Assembly: GCA_045660785.1 (NCBI GenBank)
Contig: JAZREL010000014.1
Span: 4,849 to 68,848, forward strand
Reading direction: 5' to 3'
From: Eubacteriales bacterium
Lineage (GTDB): Bacteria > Bacillota > Clostridia > Oscillospirales > CAG-272
Length of the DNA stretch: 64,000 nucleotides
Part shown: piece by piece, positions 21,950 to 49,307 of the stretch
Layout: every line of letters begins with the position of its first letter
Numbering within the stretch: the stretch's first letter is position 1
Made by a program: the position numbers and the translations under genes
Notes under the pieces: generated by a model
What the model saw: only the letters and a program-made list of their open reading frames with translations
The model's database searches: none
What the model was told of the DNA's origin: nothing

Positions 21950-22330
21950 TTACGCCATAATCGCGGAGAGGTCAATCACACCCGCATAGTAAAGAGCGAC
22001 TACTACCGCCAAGGCAATAACTACCGTTAAGCAAACAAGTGCGACAATAAGTCTTGGAATAAACCATTTTAAGAACCACGGCAAAATTGCGCAAAGACCG
22101 TAAGCCCTTGCAGTGCGCGGTTGAATATCAATTTTTGAAGCCCACAAAACAAAGCCGAAAATCACGCCCTGCGGCACAAAAAGCGCAAGCAAAACGGTTA
22201 AAAACGCGATTGCACAATTTACGTGCTCGGGAATTTCAACGTTTTTGATTTTATTTTCCGTTTGGCAACCGCAGCTTGTGCAAATCACCGCTTCGTTATC
22301 AAGCTCCTTTTTACATTTTTGACAAATCAT
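21950..22330 (-). CDS. Zinc-ribbon membrane protein
   Basis: 126 aa. MICQKCKKELDNEAVICTSCG ribbon plus 3 TM segments. The TM region resembles that of the preceding gene. Confidence 0.6.
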   Translation of the reverse strand: MICQKCKKELDNEAVICTSCGCQTENKIKNVEIPEHVNCAIAFLTVLLALFVPQGVIFGFVLWASKIDIQPRTARAYGLCAILPWFLKWFIPRLIVALVCLTVVIALAVVVALYYAGVIDLSAIMA

Positions 22331-22451
22331 ATTTTTCTCTCCTCATATCCCTTCAAAAGGGCTTATAAAATTATTTTAGCACACCAAGGTATAATTGTCA
22401 AGGGTGGCTTTTTGTCAAAAAAGCGGTGCCGAGGTGGCACCGCAATGCTTA

Positions 22452-22811
22452 TTAACCGATAAATCTGTTTGTCAAAATAATTCCAGCTATAGTTACAACC
22501 GTCAGAATCACCGCGCTTACAACAATGGAAACGATAGAAAGAATTCTGCCAATTTTCACCCTTGGATTATATACCAAGGTTGTTTTATTATATAAGGAAT
22601 ACATAACGAGTGAAGCTATTGCAAAGGTATAATTCATGCTGGCAAGCGCGATAATTCCGGAAATAAAGCAAAGAAGGGAAAAAACCCTAACAGACGGGCA
22701 AAATTTCACGTCCTTTTTTAATTCCGCGGTTCTGGTAAGCGCACCGCCACAGCTTGGGCAATGGTTGAACCCTTCCTTTTCAAGCTTGTTTTTACAATAT
22801 GGACACTTCAT
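22452..22811 (-). CDS. Zinc-ribbon membrane protein
   Basis: Start at MKCPYCKNKL after AAGGAGAAGG (9 codons into the track ORF). CPYC...CPSC ribbon plus TM segments. A GCGGTGCC/GGCACCGC terminator lies downstream. Confidence 0.6.
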   Translation of the reverse strand: MKCPYCKNKLEKEGFNHCPSCGGALTRTAELKKDVKFCPSVRVFSLLCFISGIIALASMNYTFAIASLVMYSLYNKTTLVYNPRVKIGRILSIVSIVVSAVILTVVTIAGIILTNRFIG

Positions 22812-22945
22812 ATACCTTCTCCTTAAAGCTGCTTTCATTTGACATTATTTTACCACACGCGTGCGCGCTTGTCAACATAAAACTCCACTTTTAGAAAAAG
22901 AGGGCAACGGCAAAGCCGCCAAGCCCTCTTTCTGTAATTTTTAGT

Positions 22946-23338
22946 TTAGCCCTGGAAAAGTAATGCAAATAAAAAAGCGTAGACAATAACGTAATAAAGT
23001 ATTAGAGCTACGATAGCGAGCGCCCAGATGATAATTCCGATAACGCCGCATACAGAACCAACCTTAACCATTGTGTGTGATTCGCCTGCTTTTTTCTTGT
23101 ATAATGTTCCGGTAATCAAAGCGGCAATACCGCCGACAATTCCTAATCCCCAAATGATGGAGGCAATACCCGTTGCCATACAAATGATAGCAAGCACGAG
23201 TGGCTTTTTCTTTACCGGTGTCTTTATCTCTACGTAATCCGGTTCAACTTTTTCCTGCTCTTCCACCCTTGGCTCCTCGGGAGTGCAATTTGGGCAAGCT
23301 CCGTTTATAAGCTCAGTGCCACATTGTGAACAAAACAT
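22946..23338 (-). CDS. Zinc-ribbon membrane protein (DUF4190-like C-terminus)
   Basis: Start at MFCSQCG after AAAGGAGAG. CSQC...CPNC ribbon and Gly-rich TM pair. Confidence 0.6.
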   Translation of the reverse strand: MFCSQCGTELINGACPNCTPEEPRVEEQEKVEPDYVEIKTPVKKKPLVLAIICMATGIASIIWGLGIVGGIAALITGTLYKKKAGESHTMVKVGSVCGVIGIIIWALAIVALILYYVIVYAFLFALLFQG

Positions 23339-23433
23339 ATTTTTCTCTCCTTTCATACGTCAAACGACATATTTCTACTTTTATTTTATCACGGTACAGA
23401 CATTTTGTCAATATACTTGCAATTTGTTACAGC

Positions 23434-23505
23434 TTATAATTCTACCTCAAGCAGCTTGTCAAGCTCCGCGCTCTTTTCGCTTGAGTATAGGGGGAGGCGT
23501 ATATC
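23434..23505 (-). pseudogene. Displaced, recoded duplicate of the last 23 codons + stop of dapA
   Basis: Encodes DIRLPLYSSEKSAELDKLLEVEL*, versus ELRLPLSPTQKSAELDKLLEIEL* at the live dapA end. It lies downstream of the inserted element. Confidence 0.7.
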
Positions 23506-23602
23506 TTGCCTTCCCCAGTTAGGGGAAGGGGGACCGCAGTTGGGTGCTTGAAAACAAGCGGTGCGCGAAAACGCCTGCGGTGGATGAGGTGTATAATGCA
23601 TA
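23506..23602 (-). mobile_element. Solo-end palindromic mini-element (divergent member of the DUF559-cassette TIR family) inserted right after the dapA stop
   Basis: Outer palindrome CCTTCCCC-agtta-GGGGAAGG, then GGGGACCGCAGTTGGGTG and CTGCGGTGGATGAGGTGT. These parallel GGGGACCGCTTGCGGTGGAGGGATTGGTGTG of the full element at 40110. Confidence 0.5.
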
Positions 23603-24478
23603 TCAAAGCTCAATTTCGAGTAATTTGTCAAGCTCTGCGCTCTTCTGAGTCGGAGAAAGGGGGAGGCGTAGCTCGTTTTCCATAAAACCGAGGCGCGAAA
23701 GGAGATATTTTAGCGGCACGGGGTTGGTTTCACAAAAAAGTGATGATATAATTGGAGATAGCTCACGTTGGATTTTTAGCGAAATATCGACACGTCCCGC
23801 CACGAAATGAGTGCAAAGCTCGCGCATTTTTCTTGGCACAAGGTTTGAAGCAACCGAAACTACGCCATAGCCGCCAAGGGACAAATTCAGGTAGGTCATA
23901 TCGTCGTTGCCTGTGTAAATTGCGTATCTTTCGCCGTATAATCGGTGCAGCTCCTGCAAATAGCTCGCGTTTCCGCTTGCCTCCTTAACCGCGACTATAT
24001 TTTCCTCATCAATGAGCTTTCCGTAAACGGAAAGTGGGATTTGCGCGCCCGTTCTTGACGGCACGTTATATAAAATCAGCGGAAGCGGTGTGCTTTTTGC
24101 CACCTCCCTAAAGTGATTTACAAGCCCGTTTTCGTTTGGCTTATTGTAGTATGGCGAGACGCACAAAAGTGCATTTGCCCCCGAGGAGTGTGCGTTTTTG
24201 GCATATCTTACCGTGCTTTCGGTGCAGTTTGTGCCGACACCGACAACAAGGGGAATTCTTCCCTTTACTACCTCGCTTGAAAATTTTACTATTTCCTCGC
24301 GCTCACTCTCGCTAACCGTGGGTGCTTCCCCCGTTGTGCCGAGAACCACTATCGCGTCTGCGCCGTTTTCTATTTGATATTCTATTACGTGCCCAAGCGC
24401 TAAGCAGTCAACCTCGCCGCCCTTAAAGGGAGTGGGGAGCGCGGTGATAACGCCAAAGGGCAAAATATTCTTTTGCAT
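23603..24478 (-). CDS. dapA: 4-hydroxy-tetrahydrodipicolinate synthase
   Basis: 291 aa. GVITALPTPF, VLGTTGEAPT and YNVPSRTG motifs. Confidence 0.9.
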   Translation of the reverse strand: MQKNILPFGVITALPTPFKGGEVDCLALGHVIEYQIENGADAIVVLGTTGEAPTVSESEREEIVKFSSEVVKGRIPLVVGVGTNCTESTVRYAKNAHSSGANALLCVSPYYNKPNENGLVNHFREVAKSTPLPLILYNVPSRTGAQIPLSVYGKLIDEENIVAVKEASGNASYLQELHRLYGERYAIYTGNDDMTYLNLSLGGYGVVSVASNLVPRKMRELCTHFVAGRVDISLKIQRELSPIISSLFCETNPVPLKYLLSRLGFMENELRLPLSPTQKSAELDKLLEIEL

Positions 24479-25696: not shown

Positions 25697-27289
25697 ATGG
25701 ACTTGATTGCAATTGTTGGGCCGACGGCGGTTGGCAAAACCGCGCTCGCACTTGCTTTGGCGAAAAGATATAACGGCGAGATTATCTCGTGCGATTCCAT
25801 GCAAATTTACAAGCATATGGACATTGGCACAGCTAAGCCGACAAAAAATGAGCAAGCAATTTGCCCTCACCACCTAATTGATATAAAGGAGCCAAACGAG
25901 GACTTTTCCTGTGCGGAATACGCCACCTTGGCACGTGAGGCAATTGAAGATATAAGGAGCCGCGGCAAGCTGCCTATTTTCTGTGGCGGCACGGGTCTTT
26001 ATCTTGACAGCGTTTTGAAAATTTCGTCATTTAGCGAAACACAGGTTGACGAAAGCTACCGCGCCGAGCTTGAAAAATTTGCAAGTGAAAACGGTGCTGA
26101 CGCGCTCCACGCGCTTCTCTCATCGGTTGACCCTGAAAGCGCCGAGGCAATTCACAAAAACAACCAAAAAAGAGTAATTCGCGCACTTGAAATATATAAG
26201 TGCACGGGTAAGAAAAAGAGCGAGCTTGACCGTCTTTCGCGTGAGCAGGAGCCGCCGTACGATGCCACGGTCTTTTTCCTAACCGCACGCGAGCGCGAGC
26301 TTCTCTATTCGCGAATTGAACAGCGCGTTGATATTATGCTTGACGAGGGGCTGGAAGCCGAGGCGAAATACCTTTGGGAAAACGAGCTTTTGAAGCCCGA
26401 ATATAATTCCTACGCGGCAATCGGCTACAAGGAGCTTATCCCTTATTTCAAGGGCGAAAAAACGCTTGAGGGGTGCATCTTAGACCTAAAGCTTGCCACG
26501 CGCCACTATGCAAAAAGACAGCTCACTTGGTTCTCGCGCGAGGAAAGCTATCATAAAATTTACATCGACGCAGAAAACGCATACGATTCCGCTTGCGCCA
26601 TAATCGACGGGCAAAAAAGCCCAAAGCAAAAAGCGATTGACGCGGGCTTTGACGAGGTTACAGATACCATTCGCCGCCTTGATCCAAATGGCAAGGTTTC
26701 GCTCCTTGCCGCAACAAAAATGCAGGATGCCAAGGACATAAACTACCTCATTTCCAAGGGAGTTAAGATTATTGGCGAAAACCGAGTAAACGAGCTGATT
26801 GAAAAATACGACTCGTACGATAAAAGTGCGGAGCTTCACTTTATCGGCACACTCCAAAAGAATAAGGTTAAATATATAATAGATAAGGTTTCCTTAATTC
26901 ACTCGCTCGATTCATATTCACTTGCCGAGGAAATCAGCAAGCGCGCAACCAAAATCGGCAAGGTAATGGACGTTTTGGTTGAGGTAAACAGCGGACGTGA
27001 GGAAAACAAGGGCGGCATTTTACCCGAGGACCTTTATAGCTTCCTTGCCTCACTCACCTCACTCTCAGGCGTGCGCGTGCGCGGACTTATGACAATGGCG
27101 CCAAGGTGCGAGAAAAAAGAGGACTACTTAAAATATTTTTCACTGACGAAGGAACTTTTCGATGCGCATTTCGGTGGCGACGAAAACGCGATTTTGTCAA
27201 TGGGAATGAGCGAAAGCTACGAGGAAGCAATTTTATCTGGAGCGACTCTTGTTCGAGTTGGCTCAAAAATATTTGGAAGGAGAAATTAA
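25697..27289 (+). CDS. miaA: tRNA dimethylallyltransferase fused to YggS/PLPBP-type PLP-binding domain
   Basis: Single 530-aa ORF. Residues about 1-300 are MiaA (IVGPTAVGKT P-loop, SCDSMQIYKHMDIGTAKP, YAKRQLTWF). Residues about 315-530 are YggS/YlmE (KIIGENRVNE, HFIGTLQKNK, GLMTMAP, LSMGMSESY, VRVGSKIFG). Confidence 0.85.
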   Translation: MDLIAIVGPTAVGKTALALALAKRYNGEIISCDSMQIYKHMDIGTAKPTKNEQAICPHHLIDIKEPNEDFSCAEYATLAREAIEDIRSRGKLPIFCGGTGLYLDSVLKISSFSETQVDESYRAELEKFASENGADALHALLSSVDPESAEAIHKNNQKRVIRALEIYKCTGKKKSELDRLSREQEPPYDATVFFLTARERELLYSRIEQRVDIMLDEGLEAEAKYLWENELLKPEYNSYAAIGYKELIPYFKGEKTLEGCILDLKLATRHYAKRQLTWFSREESYHKIYIDAENAYDSACAIIDGQKSPKQKAIDAGFDEVTDTIRRLDPNGKVSLLAATKMQDAKDINYLISKGVKIIGENRVNELIEKYDSYDKSAELHFIGTLQKNKVKYIIDKVSLIHSLDSYSLAEEISKRATKIGKVMDVLVEVNSGREENKGGILPEDLYSFLASLTSLSGVRVRGLMTMAPRCEKKEDYLKYFSLTKELFDAHFGGDENAILSMGMSESYEEAILSGATLVRVGSKIFGRRN

Positions 27290-32499: not shown

Positions 32500-33525
32500 A
32501 TGAAAACAGTATGCTTTGGCGAAATTATGCTCCGCTTAAATCCGGCGGGATACACAAGATTTATTCAAACAGATACGTTTGGCGCAACCTACGGTGGCGG
32601 TGAAGCAAACGTTGCAGTTTCTCTTGCTAACTACGGCATTGATGCATCCTACGTTACAAAGCTTCCAAGCCACGAAATCGGTCAAAGCGCGGTTAACTCA
32701 CTCCGCAGATACGGCGTTGACACAAGCGACATCGTAAGAGGTGGCGAGCGCGTTGGTATTTACTACCTTGAAACAGGCGCATCACAAAGACCGTCAAAGG
32801 TTATTTACGACCGTGCATATTCAGCTATTGCTCTTGCAAAGAGAAGCGATTTTGATTGGGAAAAGATCCTCGACGGCGCAAATTGGTTCCACTTTACAGG
32901 CATCACTCCGGCACTCGGCGGTGAGCTTCCCGAAATTTGTATGGACGCACTTAAGGTTTGCCGCGAAAAGGGCATCACCACAAGTTGCGACCTTAACTAC
33001 CGCAAAAACCTTTGGTCAACAGAGGAAGCAGGCAAGGTTATGGGCGAGCTTATGAAGCTTGTTGACGTTTGCATTGCAAACGAGGAGGACGCTGAAAAGG
33101 TATTCGGCATTAAGGCAGAAAACACAGACGTTGACGCAGGCGTTGTTAACCACGAGGGCTACAAGAGCGTTGCATCACAGCTCTCTGCCCGTTTCGGCTT
33201 CAAGCGCGTTGCTATTACACTCCGTACAAGCATTTCGGCAAACGACAACGTTTGGGCGGCTATGCTCTATGATGCAAACGAAAACGAATACTATTTCTCA
33301 CGCTCATATAACATCCACATCGTTGACCGTGTTGGCGGCGGTGACTCATTCGGCGGCGGTCTTATCTACGCTTCCTTGATGAACAAGTCAAGCCAAGACG
33401 TTATCGAATTTGCAGTTGGGGCATCATGCCTCAAGCACACAATTATCGGTGACTATAACTTAGTTAGCGTAAAAGAGGTTGAAGGCCTCATCAAGGGCGG
33501 CGGCTCAGGACGCGTTCAAAGATAA
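32500..33525 (+). CDS. kdgK: 2-dehydro-3-deoxygluconokinase (PfkB family)
   Basis: 341 aa. FGEIMLRLNP, GGGEANVAV and DRVGGGDSF motifs. Confidence 0.85.
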   Translation: MKTVCFGEIMLRLNPAGYTRFIQTDTFGATYGGGEANVAVSLANYGIDASYVTKLPSHEIGQSAVNSLRRYGVDTSDIVRGGERVGIYYLETGASQRPSKVIYDRAYSAIALAKRSDFDWEKILDGANWFHFTGITPALGGELPEICMDALKVCREKGITTSCDLNYRKNLWSTEEAGKVMGELMKLVDVCIANEEDAEKVFGIKAENTDVDAGVVNHEGYKSVASQLSARFGFKRVAITLRTSISANDNVWAAMLYDANENEYYFSRSYNIHIVDRVGGGDSFGGGLIYASLMNKSSQDVIEFAVGASCLKHTIIGDYNLVSVKEVEGLIKGGGSGRVQR

Positions 33526-33591
33526 CTTCCAAGCTTAAGGACAATCCCTCCGTCAACTACGTTGACACCTCCCTTTGCACAAAGGAGGCAA
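33526..33591 (+). mobile_element. Solo-end palindromic mini-element (TIR-family member) inserted right after the kdgK stop
   Basis: CAATCCCTC + hairpin GTCAAC-tac-GTTGAC + CTCCCTTTGCACAAAGGAG. This has the same three-part architecture as the right TIR of the DUF559 cassette at 40482. Confidence 0.6.
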
Positions 33592-33621
33592 GGCGGCGGA
33601 AGCGGACGAGTTCAAAGATAA
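33592..33621 (+). pseudogene. Displaced, recoded duplicate of the last 9 codons + stop of kdgK
   Basis: GGC GGC GGA AGC GGA CGA GTT CAA AGA TAA, versus the live GGC GGC GGC TCA GGA CGC GTT CAA AGA TAA. There are 5 nt differences, all synonymous (including TCA/AGC Ser). Confidence 0.7.
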
Positions 33622-38233: not shown

Positions 38234-40141
38234 ATGAAGGACGGATATATAAAGGTTAAATCAATCTCGCCGCGCACAGAGGTTGGCGGAGTTAGCTTTA
38301 ACAAGGAAGAAATCGTAAAGGAAATCAAAAGCGCAATCGGCCAGGGCGTAAAAATCCTCGTTTTTCCCGAGCTTACGTTAACGGGTAAGACGGCGGGTGA
38401 TATGGCTTACAGCGGCGTTATACTAAACGCTTGTGAAAAAGCGCTTCTAAACATCAAATTTGCGACACAGGGTAGCGATATTTTGGTTTTTGTCGGCGCT
38501 CCGCTTCAGTATAAGGGTGCATCCTATTCCTGCGCGGTTGCAATAAAATCGGGTGAGATTTTGGGCGTTGTGCCTAAGATTGGAAAAATGCCGTACTTTA
38601 AGGATTTTATAAAAATCGGTGACGAGAAATATCCGTTTGGCACGGATTTACTCTTTACCTGCAAGGAAATTAGTGACCTGACCATTGGCGTTGTCATCGG
38701 TGACGCCGTTGCAAATCCTTCACCGAAGGGATTTTTCCTTTGCGAAAACGGCGCAACAGTTATTGTTAACCTCTCGGGCAGCTACGAGCTTGTTTCGAGC
38801 GAGGAAATAAGACGCGCCGCGTTTGTTTCAAAGAGTTATGCCACGAGAAGTGCTTATATCGTTGCAAATCCAAGCGAGGACGAGTCAACGACGTCTAACG
38901 TTTATTCCGCTCATAATTTCATTGTGGAAAACGGTGATATTTTAGCGGAAAGCAAGCCGTTTGAGAAGAAAACAGGCGACTGTGTGTCTGAAATTGACGT
39001 TTCTTACCTTGCGGGCAAAAGAAATTCCGTCGGTGCGCGCGCCGAGGCAATAACGGACGTTTCCTTCTCTTTTAAGCTTGAAAAAACCACTCTTACAAGA
39101 AAAATTTCAAAAACACCTTTTTTTCCTGAAGGCAAGGAAGAACTCAAAAGGCACTGTGAAAAAATCCTCACAATGCAGTCACGCTCCCTTGCCAAAAGGT
39201 TGACTGCATCTTATTCCAAGGGAATGGTGCTTGGAATTTCGGGCGGCCTTGACTCCACTCTTGCCCTTCTTGCCTGCGTTAAGTGCGCGGACTATCTCGG
39301 TTGGGACAGAAAAACGGTCACCGCCATTACAATGCCCTGCTTTGGCACAACAAAGCGCACAAAATCAAACGCGACCGAGCTTTGCAAATCCCTTGGAGTT
39401 ACGCTTCGCGAAATAAACATCTTTGAAGCAACAAGGGTTCATTTCAAGGACATCGGACACGACGAAAACGACCATAGCGTAGTTTACGAAAATGCGCAAG
39501 CACGTGAGCGCACACAAATTTTAATGGACGTGGCTAATTCAATCGGCGCGCTTGTTATCGGCACGGGCGACCTTTCCGAGGTTGCACTCGGTTGGTCAAC
39601 CTACAACGGTGACCATATGTCGATGTATAATATAAATTCCGCCCTTCCAAAGACCTTAATCAGACACGTGGTCGAGCATTTTGCAAATATAAGCGACGAA
39701 AACGTGAAAGGAATTTTGCTTGATATTCTTGATACTCCCGTTTCCCCCGAGCTTCTTCCAGCCAAGGAAAACGGCGAAATTGAGCAAAAAACAGAGGACA
39801 TTGTCGGCCCATACGAGTTACACGATTTCTTTATTTACAATTTTGTAGGGCGCAAATTTGCCCCCTCAAAGATTTACCGCTTGGCGCTTTACGCCTTTGG
39901 TGGAAAATACGACGGCGACACCGTTTATAAATGGCTCACCGTATTTATCAAGCGCTTCTTTACTCAGCAGTTCAAGCGCTCCTGCTCACCTGACGGAATC
40001 AGAATCGGCTCAGTTTCCCTCTCAAAAAATGATTTTTCAATGGTAAGCGATTTTTCGTACAAATCATTTTTAGAGGAGTTAAATTCATGCCTCCCTTGTG
40101 CAAAGGGAGGGGGACCGCTTGCGGTGGAGGGATTGGTGTGA
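38234..40141 (+). CDS. nadE: Glutamine-dependent NAD+ synthetase, C-terminus replaced by read-through into an inserted element
   Basis: 635 aa. N-terminal nitrilase-like domain plus a synthetase domain (GISGGLDST, NAQARERT). The last 19 aa (SCLPCAKGGGPLAVEGLV and nearby residues) are encoded by the element's inverted repeat. The native ...EELNENK* ending survives in the displaced copy. Confidence 0.85.
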   Translation: MKDGYIKVKSISPRTEVGGVSFNKEEIVKEIKSAIGQGVKILVFPELTLTGKTAGDMAYSGVILNACEKALLNIKFATQGSDILVFVGAPLQYKGASYSCAVAIKSGEILGVVPKIGKMPYFKDFIKIGDEKYPFGTDLLFTCKEISDLTIGVVIGDAVANPSPKGFFLCENGATVIVNLSGSYELVSSEEIRRAAFVSKSYATRSAYIVANPSEDESTTSNVYSAHNFIVENGDILAESKPFEKKTGDCVSEIDVSYLAGKRNSVGARAEAITDVSFSFKLEKTTLTRKISKTPFFPEGKEELKRHCEKILTMQSRSLAKRLTASYSKGMVLGISGGLDSTLALLACVKCADYLGWDRKTVTAITMPCFGTTKRTKSNATELCKSLGVTLREINIFEATRVHFKDIGHDENDHSVVYENAQARERTQILMDVANSIGALVIGTGDLSEVALGWSTYNGDHMSMYNINSALPKTLIRHVVEHFANISDENVKGILLDILDTPVSPELLPAKENGEIEQKTEDIVGPYELHDFFIYNFVGRKFAPSKIYRLALYAFGGKYDGDTVYKWLTVFIKRFFTQQFKRSCSPDGIRIGSVSLSKNDFSMVSDFSYKSFLEELNSCLPCAKGGGPLAVEGLV

Positions 40142-40533
40142 ACAGACGTCACAACAAGCTACTCGTACCATTAGCAAAGAATCTTCGAAAAGATATGACG
40201 GATGAGGAAAAACACTTGTGGTATGATTTTTTGAGAACCTACCCTGTTCGCTTCATTCGCCAAAAAATAATAGACGGCTATATAGTAGATTTTTATTGTG
40301 CAAAAGCTAAATTGGTTATTGAGCTTGACGGTTCTCAACACGGCGAAGAAAAAAACGCAATAAAAGATTCTGCGCGCGATTTTGAACTCTCGAAATACGA
40401 CATAAAAGTCATAAGGATACCTAATCATAAAATTTGGAATAACTTTAAGGGCGTTTGCGAGTACATTGACTTTCAAGTTCTCCAATCCCTCAGTCAGCAT
40501 AGCTGACAGCTCCCTTTGCACAAGGGAGCCAAA
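40085..40533 (+). mobile_element. DUF559-nuclease cassette bounded by about 46-nt composite terminal inverted repeats
   Basis: Left end, 40091-40136: CTCCCTTGTGCAAAGGGAG + GGGGACCGCTTGCGGTG + GAGGGATTGG. Right end, 40482-40528: CCAATCCCTC + AGTCAGCATAGCTGACAG + CTCCCTTTGCACAAGGGAG. The outer 19-mer and inner 10-mer are exact reverse complements. The middle is a different hairpin in each end. Confidence 0.65.
40138..40506 (+). CDS. DUF559 domain endonuclease (Vsr/PD-(D/E)XK-like)
   Basis: 122 aa from GTG (VNRRHNKLLVPLAKNLRKDMTDEEKHLWYDFLR...YIVDFYCAKAKLVIELDGSQH...). The ATG at 40087 is an alternative start but lies inside the palindrome. The stop falls in the right-end hairpin. Confidence 0.75.
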   Translation: MNRRHNKLLVPLAKNLRKDMTDEEKHLWYDFLRTYPVRFIRQKIIDGYIVDFYCAKAKLVIELDGSQHGEEKNAIKDSARDFELSKYDIKVIRIPNHKIWNNFKGVCEYIDFQVLQSLSQHS

Positions 40534-40650
40534 TCCCGCTCACCTGACGGAGTTCGTATTGGCTCGGTTTCCCTCTCCAAGAACGACTTTAAAATGGCAA
40601 GTGACTTTTCATACAAATCATTTTTAGAGGAATTAAACGAAAATAAATAA
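40534..40650 (+). pseudogene. Displaced, recoded duplicate of the last about 37 codons + stop of nadE
   Basis: Encodes SPDGVRIGSVSLSKNDFKMASDFSYKSFLEELNENK*. Over the 33 codons shared with the live copy, 15 codons differ: 12 synonymously and 3 by replacement (I/V, S/K, V/A). Confidence 0.75.
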
Positions 40651-46388: not shown

Positions 46389-46420
46389 GTAGGGTACGAC
46401 GCCCTCGGCGTACCGTTTTC

Positions 46421-46456
46421 TTATTTGTTAAGAAGTGTTTCAACAAGTGTGGGTGC
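46421..46456 (-). pseudogene. Displaced, recoded duplicate of the last 11 codons + stop of alaS
   Basis: Encodes APTLVETLLNK*, versus the live ALALVETLLSK*. 8 of 36 nt differ, including synonymous Leu recodings (CTC/CTT, TTG/CTT). Confidence 0.65.
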
Positions 46457-46538
46457 TTCTTTTCGCCTCCCTTGTGCAAAGGTGAGGTGGCACGACTTGT
46501 CGTGACGGAGGGATTGACCGTTTGCTTTAGCAATTATT
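46457..46538 (-). mobile_element. Solo-end palindromic mini-element (TIR-family member) inserted right after the alaS stop
   Basis: The plus strand reads CTCCCTTGTGCAAAGGTGAG + GTGGCACGACTTGTCGTGAC + GGAGGGATTG. This is the three-part TIR architecture, and its orientation relative to the host gene matches the kdgK copy. Confidence 0.6.
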
Positions 46539-49157
46539 TTATTTGCTCAAGAGTGTTTCAACAAGTGCAAGCGCATCGGCAATTTTGGAGATGTCCTTGC
46601 CGCCGCTCATTGCGCTGTCGGGGCGTCCGCCGCCCTTACCGCCTGTTACTGCGCTAACCTCGCCAAGGATTTTGCCTGCGTGTGCGCCGTTTTTAACTGC
46701 ACCCTTACCGCATACTGCGATAAAGTTGAGCTTTTCGCCTGAATGGATTGCAAATACAGCAACTGCGTTTTCGTCCTTGTCCTTGATTACGTCACCAAGT
46801 GAACGAACCGCGTCAGCACCCATATCACCAAGGTTTGCGGTGATAACGTTGAATGCGCCAACTGCTTTTGCGCTGCTGATTAAGTCGTTAACTCTTGATG
46901 AAGCCATCTTGGAGTTAAGAGATTCAATCTCGCGCTTGAGAGCTTTTATTTCCTCATTTACCGCGCCTGCACGCTTAGCAATATCGTTTACGTTTTGGCA
47001 CTTAAGCTCGCTTGATGCCTTTTCAAGGAGATTTTCCTTGTTTTCAAGGAGTGAAAGCACGCCGTAGCCCGTTGTCGCTTCAATTCTGCGCACGCCTGCC
47101 GCAACGCCAATCTCGGAAATAATCTTAAACATACCTGCCTTTGCGGTATTGTCAAGGTGAGTACCGCCACAAAGCTCGGTTGAATAGTCGCCCATTTTAA
47201 CCATACGTACAACCTTGCCGTACTTTTCTCCAAAGAGAGCCATTGCACCGTTTTTACGTGCGGTTTCAATATCTGTTTCGAGTGTTTCAACCACTGTGCC
47301 CGAAAGGATTGCCTCGTTTACAAGTGCTTCAACCTCTTTGATTTCGTCCTTTGTGAGTGCTTGGAAGTGTGTAAAGTCAAATCTGCCGATTCTTTCATCA
47401 ACGTATGAGCCCGCTTGCTCAACGTGTGTGCCGAGAACCTTGCGGAGTGCGGCTTGGAGCAAGTGAACGGATGAGTGGTTTCTTGCAATAGAAGCACGTC
47501 TTGCGCCGTCAACCTGGCAGTTGAGCGTGTCGCCAACCTTTACTGTGCCGCTTGCAATTTTACACATATGAATATATACGCCGTCTGATTTTTTGGTGTC
47601 AACAACCTCAATTTCAGCATTTTCGTTTGTAAGTGCGCCTGTGTCGCCAACCTGACCGCCGCCCTCACCGTAGAATGAGGTAGTGTCGAGAACAACGGAG
47701 CATTCGCCCTCGCTTACTTCGCTTACGCTTTCGCCGTTTTCGTCAATAATTGCGATAACCTTGCCGCTTGCTTGGAGCGTGGTGTAGCCCTCGAACACAG
47801 TCTTTGGAAGCTCCAAGGATTTTTCCTTGTCCTGCCAACCGCTAATGCTTGCACGTGCGCTTCTCGCTCTTTGCTTTTGCTCCTGCATAAGCGCTGTAAA
47901 CTTGTCCATATCGGTGCCAAGTCCGTTTTCCTCGGCAATTTCACGGGTTAAGTCAATTGGAAAGCCAAAGGTGTCGTAAAGCTTGAACGCGTCCGCGCCG
48001 TCAAGAGTATCCTTGCCGCTTTCCTTTGCTTCCTTAATAAGATTTTCAAGAATTGAAAGTCCTTGGTCGATGGTTGCGGCAAAGCGCTCCTCCTCAAGAG
48101 CAAGAACCTTTTTGATGTAGTCTGATTTTTCCTCAAGCTCGCGATAGCCATCCTTGCTTTCGCCAATTGCAACCTCGCACATTTCAACAAGGAATGCACG
48201 CTCAATTCCAAGGAGCTTACCGTGACGGCAAGCGCGGCGAATGATACGGCGAAGCACGTAGCCCCTGCCCTCGTTTGAAGGAATAACGCCGTCGGAAATC
48301 ATAAACATTGCGCTTCTTGTATGGTCGGTGATAACGCGGATTGAAATATCATCTGCGGCATCCTTGCCGTAGGTTTTGCCTGAAATTTCGCACACGGTGT
48401 CAAGGATTTTACGTACGGAGTCAACCTCGAACATATTGTCAACGTCCTGCATTACGCAAGCAAGACGCTCAAGACCCATACCTGTATCGATGTTCTTTTG
48501 TGCAAGCTCTGTATAGTTGCCTTGTCCGTCGTTGTTGAACTGTGAAAATACGTTGTTCCAAATTTCCATGTATCTGTCGCAGTCGCAGCCCGGCTTACAG
48601 TCGTCTGAGCCACAGCCGTGCTTAATTCCACGGTCAAAGTAAATTTCGGAGCAAGGGCCGCAAGGACCTGAGCCGTGCTCCCAGAAGTTATCTGCCTTAC
48701 CGAGGCGAACAACGTGCGCAGGGTTAACGCCGATTTTGTTTACCCAAATATCGTACGCTTCCTCGTCGTTTTCGTAAATTGACGGCCAAAGAAGCTCACC
48801 GGGGATTTCAAGTGTAACGGTTAAAAACTCCCAAGCAAACTGAATTGCCTCCTCCTTGAAGTAGTCACCGAAGCTGAAGTTGCCAAGCATTTCAAAGAAC
48901 GTGCCGTGGCGCGCGGTGTGACCAACTCTTTCAAGGTCAGGTGTTCTTATACACTTTTGGCAGGTGGTAACTCTCTTTGAAGGAGGCACAACCTCACCTG
49001 TAAAGAACTTTTTCATCGGAGCCATACCCGAGTTTATAAGAAGAAGGGATTTATCGTTGTTTGGAACGAGCGAAAAGCTGCCAAGACGAAGGTGTCCCTT
49101 GCTTTCAAAATAGGAAAGATATTTTTCTCTTAAATCGTTAAGTGATGTCCATTTCAT
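46539..49157 (-). CDS. alaS: Alanine--tRNA ligase
   Basis: Start at MKWTSLNDLREKYLSYFESKGH (18 codons into the track ORF). Class II motifs, editing domain and C-terminal DHHA1-like GGGRPD. Confidence 0.95.
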   Translation of the reverse strand: MKWTSLNDLREKYLSYFESKGHLRLGSFSLVPNNDKSLLLINSGMAPMKKFFTGEVVPPSKRVTTCQKCIRTPDLERVGHTARHGTFFEMLGNFSFGDYFKEEAIQFAWEFLTVTLEIPGELLWPSIYENDEEAYDIWVNKIGVNPAHVVRLGKADNFWEHGSGPCGPCSEIYFDRGIKHGCGSDDCKPGCDCDRYMEIWNNVFSQFNNDGQGNYTELAQKNIDTGMGLERLACVMQDVDNMFEVDSVRKILDTVCEISGKTYGKDAADDISIRVITDHTRSAMFMISDGVIPSNEGRGYVLRRIIRRACRHGKLLGIERAFLVEMCEVAIGESKDGYRELEEKSDYIKKVLALEEERFAATIDQGLSILENLIKEAKESGKDTLDGADAFKLYDTFGFPIDLTREIAEENGLGTDMDKFTALMQEQKQRARSARASISGWQDKEKSLELPKTVFEGYTTLQASGKVIAIIDENGESVSEVSEGECSVVLDTTSFYGEGGGQVGDTGALTNENAEIEVVDTKKSDGVYIHMCKIASGTVKVGDTLNCQVDGARRASIARNHSSVHLLQAALRKVLGTHVEQAGSYVDERIGRFDFTHFQALTKDEIKEVEALVNEAILSGTVVETLETDIETARKNGAMALFGEKYGKVVRMVKMGDYSTELCGGTHLDNTAKAGMFKIISEIGVAAGVRRIEATTGYGVLSLLENKENLLEKASSELKCQNVNDIAKRAGAVNEEIKALKREIESLNSKMASSRVNDLISSAKAVGAFNVITANLGDMGADAVRSLGDVIKDKDENAVAVFAIHSGEKLNFIAVCGKGAVKNGAHAGKILGEVSAVTGGKGGGRPDSAMSGGKDISKIADALALVETLLSK

Positions 49158-49307
49158 ATCAAAATCCTCACAATTTGACGTAAATATTATAAAACACATA
49201 CATTTTAGCATTATTATATAATTTTGTCAAGAATTATTTATAACTTGACAATCATTAGGTATCGGGGTATAATTTTAATGAGAAACAAAAGAAGGCAGGC
49301 AATTAAG

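Follow-up and report, generated by a model that had tools for sequence, protein, structure and literature searches.

A gene-less insert after dapA in a Clostridia contig is a degenerate member of a family of DUF559 nuclease cassettes with structured inverted ends

Downstream of dapA, the gene of 4-hydroxy-tetrahydrodipicolinate synthase, a stretch of 64,000 nucleotides from a Eubacteriales bacterium (GenBank assembly GCA_045660785.1, contig JAZREL010000014.1, positions 4,849 to 68,848; hereafter the window) contains a gene-less insert of 97 nt followed by a second copy of the end of the gene. The locus is a degenerate member of a family of cassettes whose full members consist of one small DUF559 nuclease gene (PF04480, Vsr-like PD-(D/E)XK) between two inverted end modules. 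These cassettes occupy the last codons of conserved genes in the order gene body, working respelled tail (tail 1), cassette, displaced tail (tail 2). At dapA, only one end is present, so the copy is a solo relic and not a complete mini-element. With a probability of roughly 60%, the insert is the surviving end of selfish DUF559 cassettes that home into gene 3′ ends together with a replacement tail.

An earlier note on this DNA, made from the letters alone, had described the end of dapA, the insert and the second tail, and their sequence and coordinates were all confirmed (Table 1). The length of dapA matches that of its relatives. Comparison of the two tails over 24 codons showed 8 codons unchanged, 8 sense codons and the stop (TGA/TAA) changed synonymously, and 7 replaced, in agreement with the eight synonymous codons, seven replacements and two intact stops counted before. 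Nucleotide identity between the tails is 49/72, the longest identical core is ~12 nt at most, and the proportion of synonymous differences (pS) is 0.87 vs 0.15 for nonsynonymous ones (pN), which makes "recoded tail duplicate" an apt name. The replacements concentrate in a four-residue block that is variable among orthologues (YPSQ, SPSS, APSE, CKAE...), and RLPL and ELDKLLE are retained. Due to the 97-nt insert, tail 2 is out of frame with dapA. Its translation by read-through or ribosomal bypass was rejected; a doubled tail would make no sense. The open reading frame (ORF) of 65 amino acids annotated here opens with TTG inside tail 1 in another frame, crosses the insert and terminates as tail 2, and was thus rightly called a mere chimera.

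Starting from the stop of tail 1, the insert is composed of a spacer, a short box, a hairpin with a long interior (P2), an outer palindrome (P1) and the trinucleotide CAA. The palindrome CCTTCCCC-agtta-GGGGAAGG does differ from the type usual in this family, as had been pointed out, and the sequences GGGGACCGCAG... and ...CTGCGGTGGATGAGGTGT are both found in the insert. Loci outside the window are given here by their L numbers. The spacer shrinks to 3 nt (TGC) in L009, the box recurs identically in L009, L061 and L076, and CAA also stands next to P1 at nadE and at a PfkB kinase gene of the window and in L009. Folding of the insert as single-stranded DNA predicts two hairpins, with −22 kcal/mol and z = −4.9 for either strand. 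A reading as miniature inverted-repeat transposable element was rejected: a single end is present, and the flanking repeats are 27-105 nt long and diverged, not a short target-site duplication of fixed length.

For the relationship to the DUF559 cassette, the insert was aligned locally with the left end of the cassette located at nadE (40084-40145). The score was 25, whereas dinucleotide shuffles had a mean of 14.6 and reached 25 in 9 of 2000 cases; a similarity within the range of shuffled controls, which would have spoken against the kinship claimed earlier, was not what we found, and the motif described below also recurs in relatives. A covariance model (R1) was built from 18 modules of other genomes with a hand-given structure, leaving out the window sequences. 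Alignment and folding of all modules by MAFFT and RNAalifold mis-aligned the hairpins and was superseded by the hand-given structure on this 18-sequence subset. In the window, the model detected four canonical modules with E = 1e-15 to 2e-19, and the dapA insert as fifth-best match in 64 kb with a marginal 12.7 bits (E = 0.067). Its low score results from the variant palindrome, the variant box and the 35-nt P2 loop. The composite motif CCTTCCCC-N3-6-GGGGAAGG-N8-80-GGATGAGGTG was restricted to the dapA insert, L009/L010, L061 (both ends) and L076 (two copies). Shuffling the window 200 times produced no palindrome, and the box 0.035 times per window. The metagenome contig L061 carries a complete DUF559 cassette with CCTTCCCC-loop-GGGGAAGG and the box GGATGAGGTG(T) at each end. 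Since this motif is common to relatives and to the intact L061 cassette and is unexpected by chance, the kinship is real.

The dapA insert is therefore a real member of the end-module family, and variant palindrome and variant box form a subfamily that also borders an intact DUF559 gene in L061. The insert shows the family features, namely P1, whose arms are pyrimidine (5′) and purine (3′), and P2 between P1 and the box; the adjacent PF04480 gene is absent at dapA and present for the same module type in L061. The earlier note had likened the insert to the cassette's left end. Of this claim the kinship stands, but the insert reads as a right end: from the dapA side, the element runs as box, hairpin 2, palindrome, CAA and tail 2, as in every other member in the window. 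The matching swapped box, the solo-end status, the presence of the same dapA insert in another species and a member at alaS had been overlooked.

On its purine-rich strand, an end module consists of P1 (pyrimidine arm, loop, purine arm), P2, which is free in sequence, and a mirror box of 8-10 nt. In an alignment of 137 distinct modules to the covariance model, which is fitted to the structure so that the figures lean towards it, P1 was 98.8% paired with both sides changed in 7 of 8 pairs, and P2 was 82.7% paired with both sides changed in 4 of 5 pairs. The covariation score of the hairpins was 0.464 vs 0.181 after shuffling (0 of 500 shuffles reached the observed value) and at most 0.14 with the partners slid, so that the margins are wide despite this leaning. 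The box mirrors the P1 purine arm (reverse, not complement), and the two change together in at least 15 arm variants, such as AAGGGAGG with GGAGGGAT, AGGGGAGG with GGAGGGGT, AAGGGGGA with AGGGGGAT, GAGGGAGG with GGAGGGAG and AGAGAGGG with GGGTGAGT. In the dapA type, GGGGAAGG is combined with GGATGAGG (mirrored arm GGAAGGGG), with 7 of 8 positions compatible with triplets, likewise in L061 and L009. Where the outer P1 pair is flipped and the arm ends with C, the box begins with T (54 cases). Altogether, 96.0% of 1045 arm-box cells fit G.G-C, A.A-T, T.A-T or T opposite the flipped C-G pair. With boxes shuffled among the sequences, the fit was 74.5 ± 1.0% (0 of 500 reached 96.0%), and with the box slid it was 39-55%. 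As the covariance model holds arm and box columns independent, the mirror relation is not imposed by the model.

The swapped palindrome with its matching swapped box is thus a case of three-strand covariation. The mirror layout fits the design of a fold-back antiparallel purine-motif triplex, in which P2 would act as linker. The earlier suggestion of a requirement based on structure rather than sequence appears supported by the covariation over these modules and extended by the mirror relation. A proposed correlation of palindrome type with DUF559 paralog or clade turned out to be weak but significant (Spearman −0.20, permutation P = 0.006). Three positions, linked to one another, consistently separate left from right modules (e.g. 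40086-40135 vs 40483-40533, alignment A3). These are the outer pair of P1 (C-G or G-C), the base that opens the box (G or T) and the second pair of P2 (a G.A mismatch, seen in 48 modules, or T-A). The hairpin mismatch is a plausible cue for a Vsr-like nuclease.

Four family members were found in the window, at dapA, the PfkB kinase gene, nadE and alaS, with uniform layout and orientation relative to the host gene. Along the host gene, the order is tail 1, the cassette where there is one, box, P2, P1, C plus three A/T-rich bases, and tail 2. The whole window holds a single DUF559 gene, which belongs to the full cassette at nadE, and no DUF559 nuclease ORF was found at dapA. The protein of the nadE cassette matches Pfam PF04480 with E = 5e-27 and PDB 3hrl with E = 1e-11, and the two modules of this cassette were detected by the covariance model with E = 1e-16 and 2e-19. 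The kinase tails differ by five nucleotides and 0 amino acids, including a serine encoded by TCA/AGC. The P1 of the alaS member (window 46416-46567) has one bulge. The nadE gene extends 18 codons into the end module (window 40084-40141), and an equal fusion is found in L001; the end module therefore gives the essential enzyme nadE a C-terminal extension.

The dapA site was also compared among species. DNA of dapA relatives was obtained by a protein search in three cases (74-79% protein identity) and by a genome scan in a fourth (L004, 75%); the scan of the genome collection with dapA gave one close relative. L009/L010, from another species with 74% protein identity of dapA, have the same gene-less insert directly after the dapA stop, with the order box ACACCTCATCC, stem ACCGCAG...CTGCGGT, CC, CCTTCCCC-tcaa-GGGGAAGG, CAA and second tail. 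This tail begins at the same codon as the window copy (ELRLPLAQSEIGAELDKLL...), and the contig stops inside it. Between the window and L009, 46 of 46 structural positions of the insert are identical, compared to 20 of 38 aligned positions in the P2 interior and 77.6% DNA identity in the dapA bodies (window vs L009/L010). The gene-less dapA form is old and common to another species; it is the divergence of the P2 interiors to about 50% that makes the insertion old. In L011/L012, the dapA site is empty. Of the bases following tail 2 in the window, 95 of 116 match those behind the stop in L011, a stretch that takes in the promoter and the beginning of the next gene; the insert has no counterpart in L011. 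The DNA after tail 2 is thus the native continuation, and the dapA site is known in its occupied (window, L009/L010) and unoccupied (L011/L012) state. In L004 (3877-3900) and L007 (3377-3400), dapA is free of the element, yet ACACCTC stands 4 bases past the stop at the position of the box ACACCTCATCC, which may be a scar of past occupancy.

Beyond the window, at least 8000 relatives of the DUF559 protein were found, all at E ≤ 0.001. The closest (79-82% identity) lie at the same nadE end in other Clostridia, where the tails are likewise duplicated; the site is occupied in L001 and L003. In L001, the nadE tails are identical over 97 nt and then sharply different over the last 16 nt beside the cassette. 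In L003 (4397-4480), the short displaced nadE tail 2 holds an older solo palindrome scar (...ELNS-CLTCAKG-DTNK, then stop) downstream of the current cassette. The host of L061 is an ORF of 125 amino acids whose tails share 39 identical bases. Tail 1 ends with KARRD and stop plus 22 nt before the cassette, and tail 2 ends with KKQPGRDV and stop, where it overlaps the ATG and ribosome-binding site of the gene that follows. Because of this overlap, tail 2 of L061 is the native one, and the last 5 codons, stop and 22 nt of tail 1, which differ, therefore arrived with the cassette. L013 and L029, with another host, have tail duplicates of 21 and 11 codons. The layout is also seen in further host genes (L013 and L061). 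An automated survey of flanking direct and peptide repeats at 42-60 DUF559 loci was noisy, with many matches being module copies or arrays. Tail duplication is therefore claimed for the inspected hosts only: nadE (three genomes), dapA (two), the kinase, alaS, the L013/L029 host and the L061 host.

The covariance model gave 162 matches in 274 kb at metagenome loci. In L023, L059, L052, L047 and L056, DUF559 genes are embedded in arrays of 5-8 end modules, tandem or inverted and with repeating spacers, which are more similar to clusters of bacterial interspersed mosaic elements (BIMEs) than to single cassettes. Viral contigs from IMG/VR (L093-L095) encode DUF559 relatives with 54-63% identity, and the one in L093 has end modules to its left and right (E = 8e-13 and 3e-11), which makes phages conceivable carriers. 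Among predicted targets of programmed inversion, "DUF559 domain-containing protein" is enriched with an odds ratio of 14 (PMC9881135), which would be explained by a gene between long inverted end modules.

Pooling the three longer tail pairs of the window gave pS 0.64 and pN 0.11, i.e. a ratio of 0.17 (P = 1.6e-9 against neutrality). Differences biased in this way indicate that both copies evolved as working tails in different lineages, with one brought in; one of the two dapA tails accordingly derives from another lineage. Tail 2 is suggested as the native dapA tail by the overlap with the next gene in L061, by the tail of L003 and by its own continuity with native DNA downstream. The reading frame of tail 2 is kept in all 5 copies examined and the stop in all 4 complete ones, which are all from the window, the L009 copy ending with its contig.

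Our favoured explanation of these tails is homing. The nuclease would break the unoccupied allele close to the 3′ end of the gene, and repair of the break would copy tail 1 and the cassette from the donor, with the gene body serving as left and the relic tail 2 as right homology arm. The host gene would remain functional through the replacement tail 1, whose respelling would allow escape from pairing with the target or from re-cutting. At every transfer, tail 2 would be partly overwritten by the recipient's own tail. Such a renewal would account for a young, coding-like tail 2 in an old lineage, and also for the identity tracts between tails and for the benefit of respelling tail 1. The dapA copy would have lost the nuclease gene and the other end, keeping box, P2, P1 and CAA, and would be left with three fates: persistence, loss through recombination of the two tails with each other, or movement passively or in trans.

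A rather unlikely alternative is allelic replacement: a single insertion after the stop with a simple duplication, followed by homologous recombination that swapped the working tail, the spelling being unrelated to mobility. The synonymous bias would need only that both tails had worked in different lineages, and the 3′ half of tail 1 is indeed closer to the other occupied species (30/36 bases) than to other relatives. However, recombination at ~30% divergence without a stimulating break would be required, and it must have recurred independently at four genes of one 64-kb window. The undecayed tail 2 and the cassette-linked foreign stop plus 22 nt in L061 are left unaccounted for.

It is also improbable that a replication stall at the hairpin or triplex, or widely staggered nicks, doubled the dapA tail locally and that the copies then drifted in place. 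This would be in line with the association of triplex and hairpin DNA with local rearrangement (PMC4666352), with the persistence of long identical tracts (97 nt in L001, 39 nt in L061) and with duplicate lengths varying from 27 to 105 nt. Under duplication and decay, however, the expected synonymous share is ~0.355, and the observed share is 0.648 (P = 3.9e-5 pooled; 0.007 for dapA alone). The kept frames and stops of tail 2 do not fit decay either, nor do the tails in L001 and L061, of which the cassette-side part of tail 1 is sharply different and the remainder identical, nor does the use of one junction codon in two species.

Still less probable is a 3′-end signal in RNA or DNA serving the host (terminator, mRNA stabiliser or protein-binding site), held by selection like repetitive extragenic palindromic (REP) sequences and BIMEs, with the second tail as by-product. 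The perfect conservation of the structural positions in two species while the P2 interior drifted, the strong fold and the position of the insert always directly after a gene would suit such a signal. Against it, no T-run was seen after the hairpins of the insert, a scan of the whole window gave no Rfam match at the gathering threshold, and the close relative L011 manages without the insert. Moreover, the modules border a nuclease gene as its inverted ends and also occur in arrays, and a third strand of G, A and T suits a DNA rather than an RNA purine-motif triplex.

An attachment-site scar, i.e. an attL/attR remnant of an excised element that had targeted the dapA 3′ end and carried a copy of the tail, is highly improbable: gene-end duplications are the usual trace of integrative elements aimed at gene 3′ ends, but none of the four loci in the window has an integrase nearby, the repeats are just 66-97 nt (the three gene-less members) or ~450 nt (nadE) apart and enclose a defined module that DUF559 cassettes also have, and the tails lack a longer identical core.

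Several points weigh against the homing explanation as well. We infer cleavage, homing, triplex formation and which tail came with the element from sequence comparison, and the purine-motif triplex from covariation only. The family nuclease has no known cleavage site, and at dapA the nuclease gene is missing, the only DUF559 gene of the window lying elsewhere, so that the dapA copy is not self-mobile. The P2 interiors of the two dapA inserts have diverged to ~50%, yet tail 2 is intact in both species; an intact tail 2 in such an old insertion would need repeated renewal or some constraint, and the homing model does not account for the perfect conservation of the solo dapA module across species. 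Tail 2 of dapA is not closer than tail 1 to any of five relatives (39-42 vs 36-41 of 58 bases). Near-identical modules in three host genes of one genome look more like transposition than strict homing to a single site. Clear duplicates of host tails occur in a minority of DUF559 cassettes (80 metagenome loci), many of which lie in module arrays, and none of three E. coli TMECO pairs checked (see below) had a tail duplication.

Each component of the proposed system has a precedent, namely tail-replacing elements of mitochondria, triplex repeats of Proteobacteria and Vsr-like homing endonucleases. Gene hybrids with mobile ORFs (mORFs) are known from fungal mitochondria, in atp6 of Allomyces macrogynus and in atp6, atp9, cox2 and nad3 of Glomus. 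There, an inserted C-terminal piece is followed by an endonuclease ORF and the displaced native piece, the copies have 64-81% DNA identity with the protein conserved, and for Allomyces it has been shown that the endonuclease drives mobility (PMC3630166). The three-part layout, a comparable divergence of the tails and presence or absence among related taxa are shared with the dapA family, and the mORF insert is sometimes without stop and in frame into the element, as at nadE. In contrast, the cassettes described here reside in a bacterial chromosome and not in an organelle, encode a Vsr-like PF04480 nuclease instead of LAGLIDADG or GIY-YIG enzymes, and have structured inverted ends, persistent gene-less solo ends and several occupied host genes per genome.

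The TMECO/BoxC repeats of E. coli, CCCTCNCCC-N3-6-GGGNGAGGG-N3-GGGNGAGGG, were found by Holder et al. (2015) to form a triplex by circular dichroism and nuclear magnetic resonance; 3610 copies in 262 genomes are tied to local variability, and the authors never found an associated mobility gene (PMC4666352). TMECO and end modules share pyrimidine arm, loop, purine arm, loop and mirrored purine arm on one strand, with T opposite A, and both are multicopy, located directly after genes, sometimes arranged as inverted pairs and linked to local genome variability. The end modules are a variant of this design, since they have a structured hairpin of 15-50 nt instead of a 3-nt second loop, and, unlike TMECO, they demonstrably enclose a nuclease gene as its inverted ends. 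The triplex of TMECO was seen in vitro, whereas that of the end modules is predicted from the sequence design. Covariance model R1 did not detect TMECO in E. coli, the geometry of which differs. In E. coli K-12, TMECO no. 9 and the DUF559 gene ycjD (NC_000913.3 1351407..1351760; L096 1349500-1354500) are ~170 nt apart. The final codons of ycjD extend into a degenerate TMECO palindrome, after which the tail of the gene is repeated in diverged form. Tentatively, DUF559 proteins could be the missing mobility enzymes of intrastrand-triplex (BoxC/TMECO-like) repeats, i.e. of widespread selfish cassettes whose folded triplex-hairpin ends are recognised or processed and which in Clostridia enter housekeeping genes at the 3′ end with a recoded rescue tail, although we would not call this probable.

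A published classification groups DUF559 with Vsr and the homing endonuclease I-Bth0305I (PMC3424549). Vsr-like or EDxHD homing endonucleases such as I-Bth0305I (PMC3239194, PMC2677866) are similar to the present family in being small Vsr-fold nucleases as selfish genes, with one site occupied in different genomes and the target in a conserved gene. Unlike this class, the DUF559 cassettes lack an intron or intein, belong to PF04480, have inverted structured ends and a duplicated host tail, and cleavage by DUF559 is predicted. The REP/RAYT (REPIN) system also has a nuclease-type gene between inverted hairpin repeats, many gene-less copies after genes and compensatory changes in the hairpins. 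Its gene is a Y1 (HUH) transposase and not DUF559, the end modules lack the GTAG head, and a mirrored third strand and host-tail duplication are not features of REP. Synthetic home-and-rescue (HomeR) drives (PMC7968924) cleave an essential gene in its 3′ part and put in a recoded rescue copy of that part together with the cargo, the original 3′ part staying downstream as right homology arm, as tail 2 does in the proposed model. HomeR is an engineered Cas9 system in insects, and the likeness is one of logic only. In the literature searched, we found no description of DUF559 cassettes with triplex-type inverted ends, of bacterial chromosomal genes with tails replaced in such manner, or of a link between DUF559 and triplex repeats.

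If the proposed explanation holds, the DUF559 family would obtain a concrete, testable role and intrastrand triplex repeats a candidate enzyme. The replacement of gene tails by endonuclease elements would extend from fungal mitochondria to bacterial housekeeping genes and shape dapA, nadE, alaS and a sugar kinase gene there, and engineered home-and-rescue gene drives would have a natural counterpart. A natural cleave-and-rescue design with a small structured DNA end could be of interest to genome engineers. For annotation, second tails produce spurious ORFs such as 23434..23631, and the reading of nadE into its cassette is a gene fusion. End modules may also cause assembly breaks, as the L009/L010 contigs stop inside tail 2.

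Table 1. Features of the dapA locus and of the other family members, in positions of the window
Feature	Position	Strand	Remarks
dapA	23603..24478	minus	291 amino acids, intact; Pfam DHDPS E = 9e-83
dapA tail 1	23603..23674	minus	final 23 codons + TGA of the working gene, ELRLPLSPTQKSAELDKLLEIEL and stop; contiguous with the gene
dapA insert	23506..23602	minus	97 nt, gene-less; solo end module of DUF559 cassette
Spacer TATGCATTAT	23593..23602	minus	10 nt, from tail-1 stop to box
Box GGATGAGGTGT	23582..23592	plus	mirrors P1 purine arm; proposed third strand
P2	23533..23581	plus	7-bp stem ACCGCAG / CTGCGGT around 35-nt interior with two small hairpins
P2 stem halves	23533-39 / 23575-81		from single-stranded DNA fold
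P1, outer palindrome CCTTCCCC-agtta-GGGGAAGG	23509..23529	plus	pyrimidine arm, loop, purine arm
CAA	23506..23508	minus	between P1 and tail 2; conserved C, then A/T-rich
dapA tail 2	23434..23505	minus	DIRLPLYSSEKSAELDKLLEVEL and stop; displaced second tail, frame and stop intact
ORF, 65 amino acids	23434..23631	minus	spurious chimera: out-of-frame tail 1 + insert + tail 2
PfkB kinase gene	32500..33525	plus	
Kinase solo end	33526..33591	plus	66 nt; covariance model E = 1e-18
Kinase tail 1	33496-33525	plus	GGGSGRVQR and stop
Kinase tail 2	33592-33621	plus	GGGSGRVQR and stop
nadE tail 1	39980..40084	plus	without stop, continues into cassette (...ELNSCLPCAKGGGPLAVEGLV and stop)
nadE full cassette	40085..40533	plus	
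Left module	40086-40135		
DUF559 ORF	40138..40506	plus	
Right module	40483-40533		
nadE tail 2	40534..40650	plus	intact, ends ...EELNENK and stop; 83% nucleotide identity to tail 1, differences mostly synonymous
alaS	46539..49211	minus	
alaS solo end	46450..46538	minus	89 nt; covariance model E = 1e-15
alaS tail 1	46539-46567	minus	LVETLLSK and stop
alaS tail 2	46421-46449	minus	LVETLLNK and stop
Boxes of sister modules	40126-40135, 33542-33551, 46507-46516		

Downstream of dapA (window 21950-23356, minus strand), four tandem paralogues encode small zinc-ribbon membrane proteins (MxCxxCG...) and have a common 54-nt stretch around the start codon (repeat family D1). The arrangement of zinc-ribbon genes after dapA is syntenic in L004, L007 and L011. 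At window 25697-27289, an ORF of 530 amino acids fuses a tRNA isopentenyltransferase (MiaA-like) with a YggS-type pyridoxal phosphate-binding (Ala_racemase_N) domain, and the same fusion was also called in L007 and L009.

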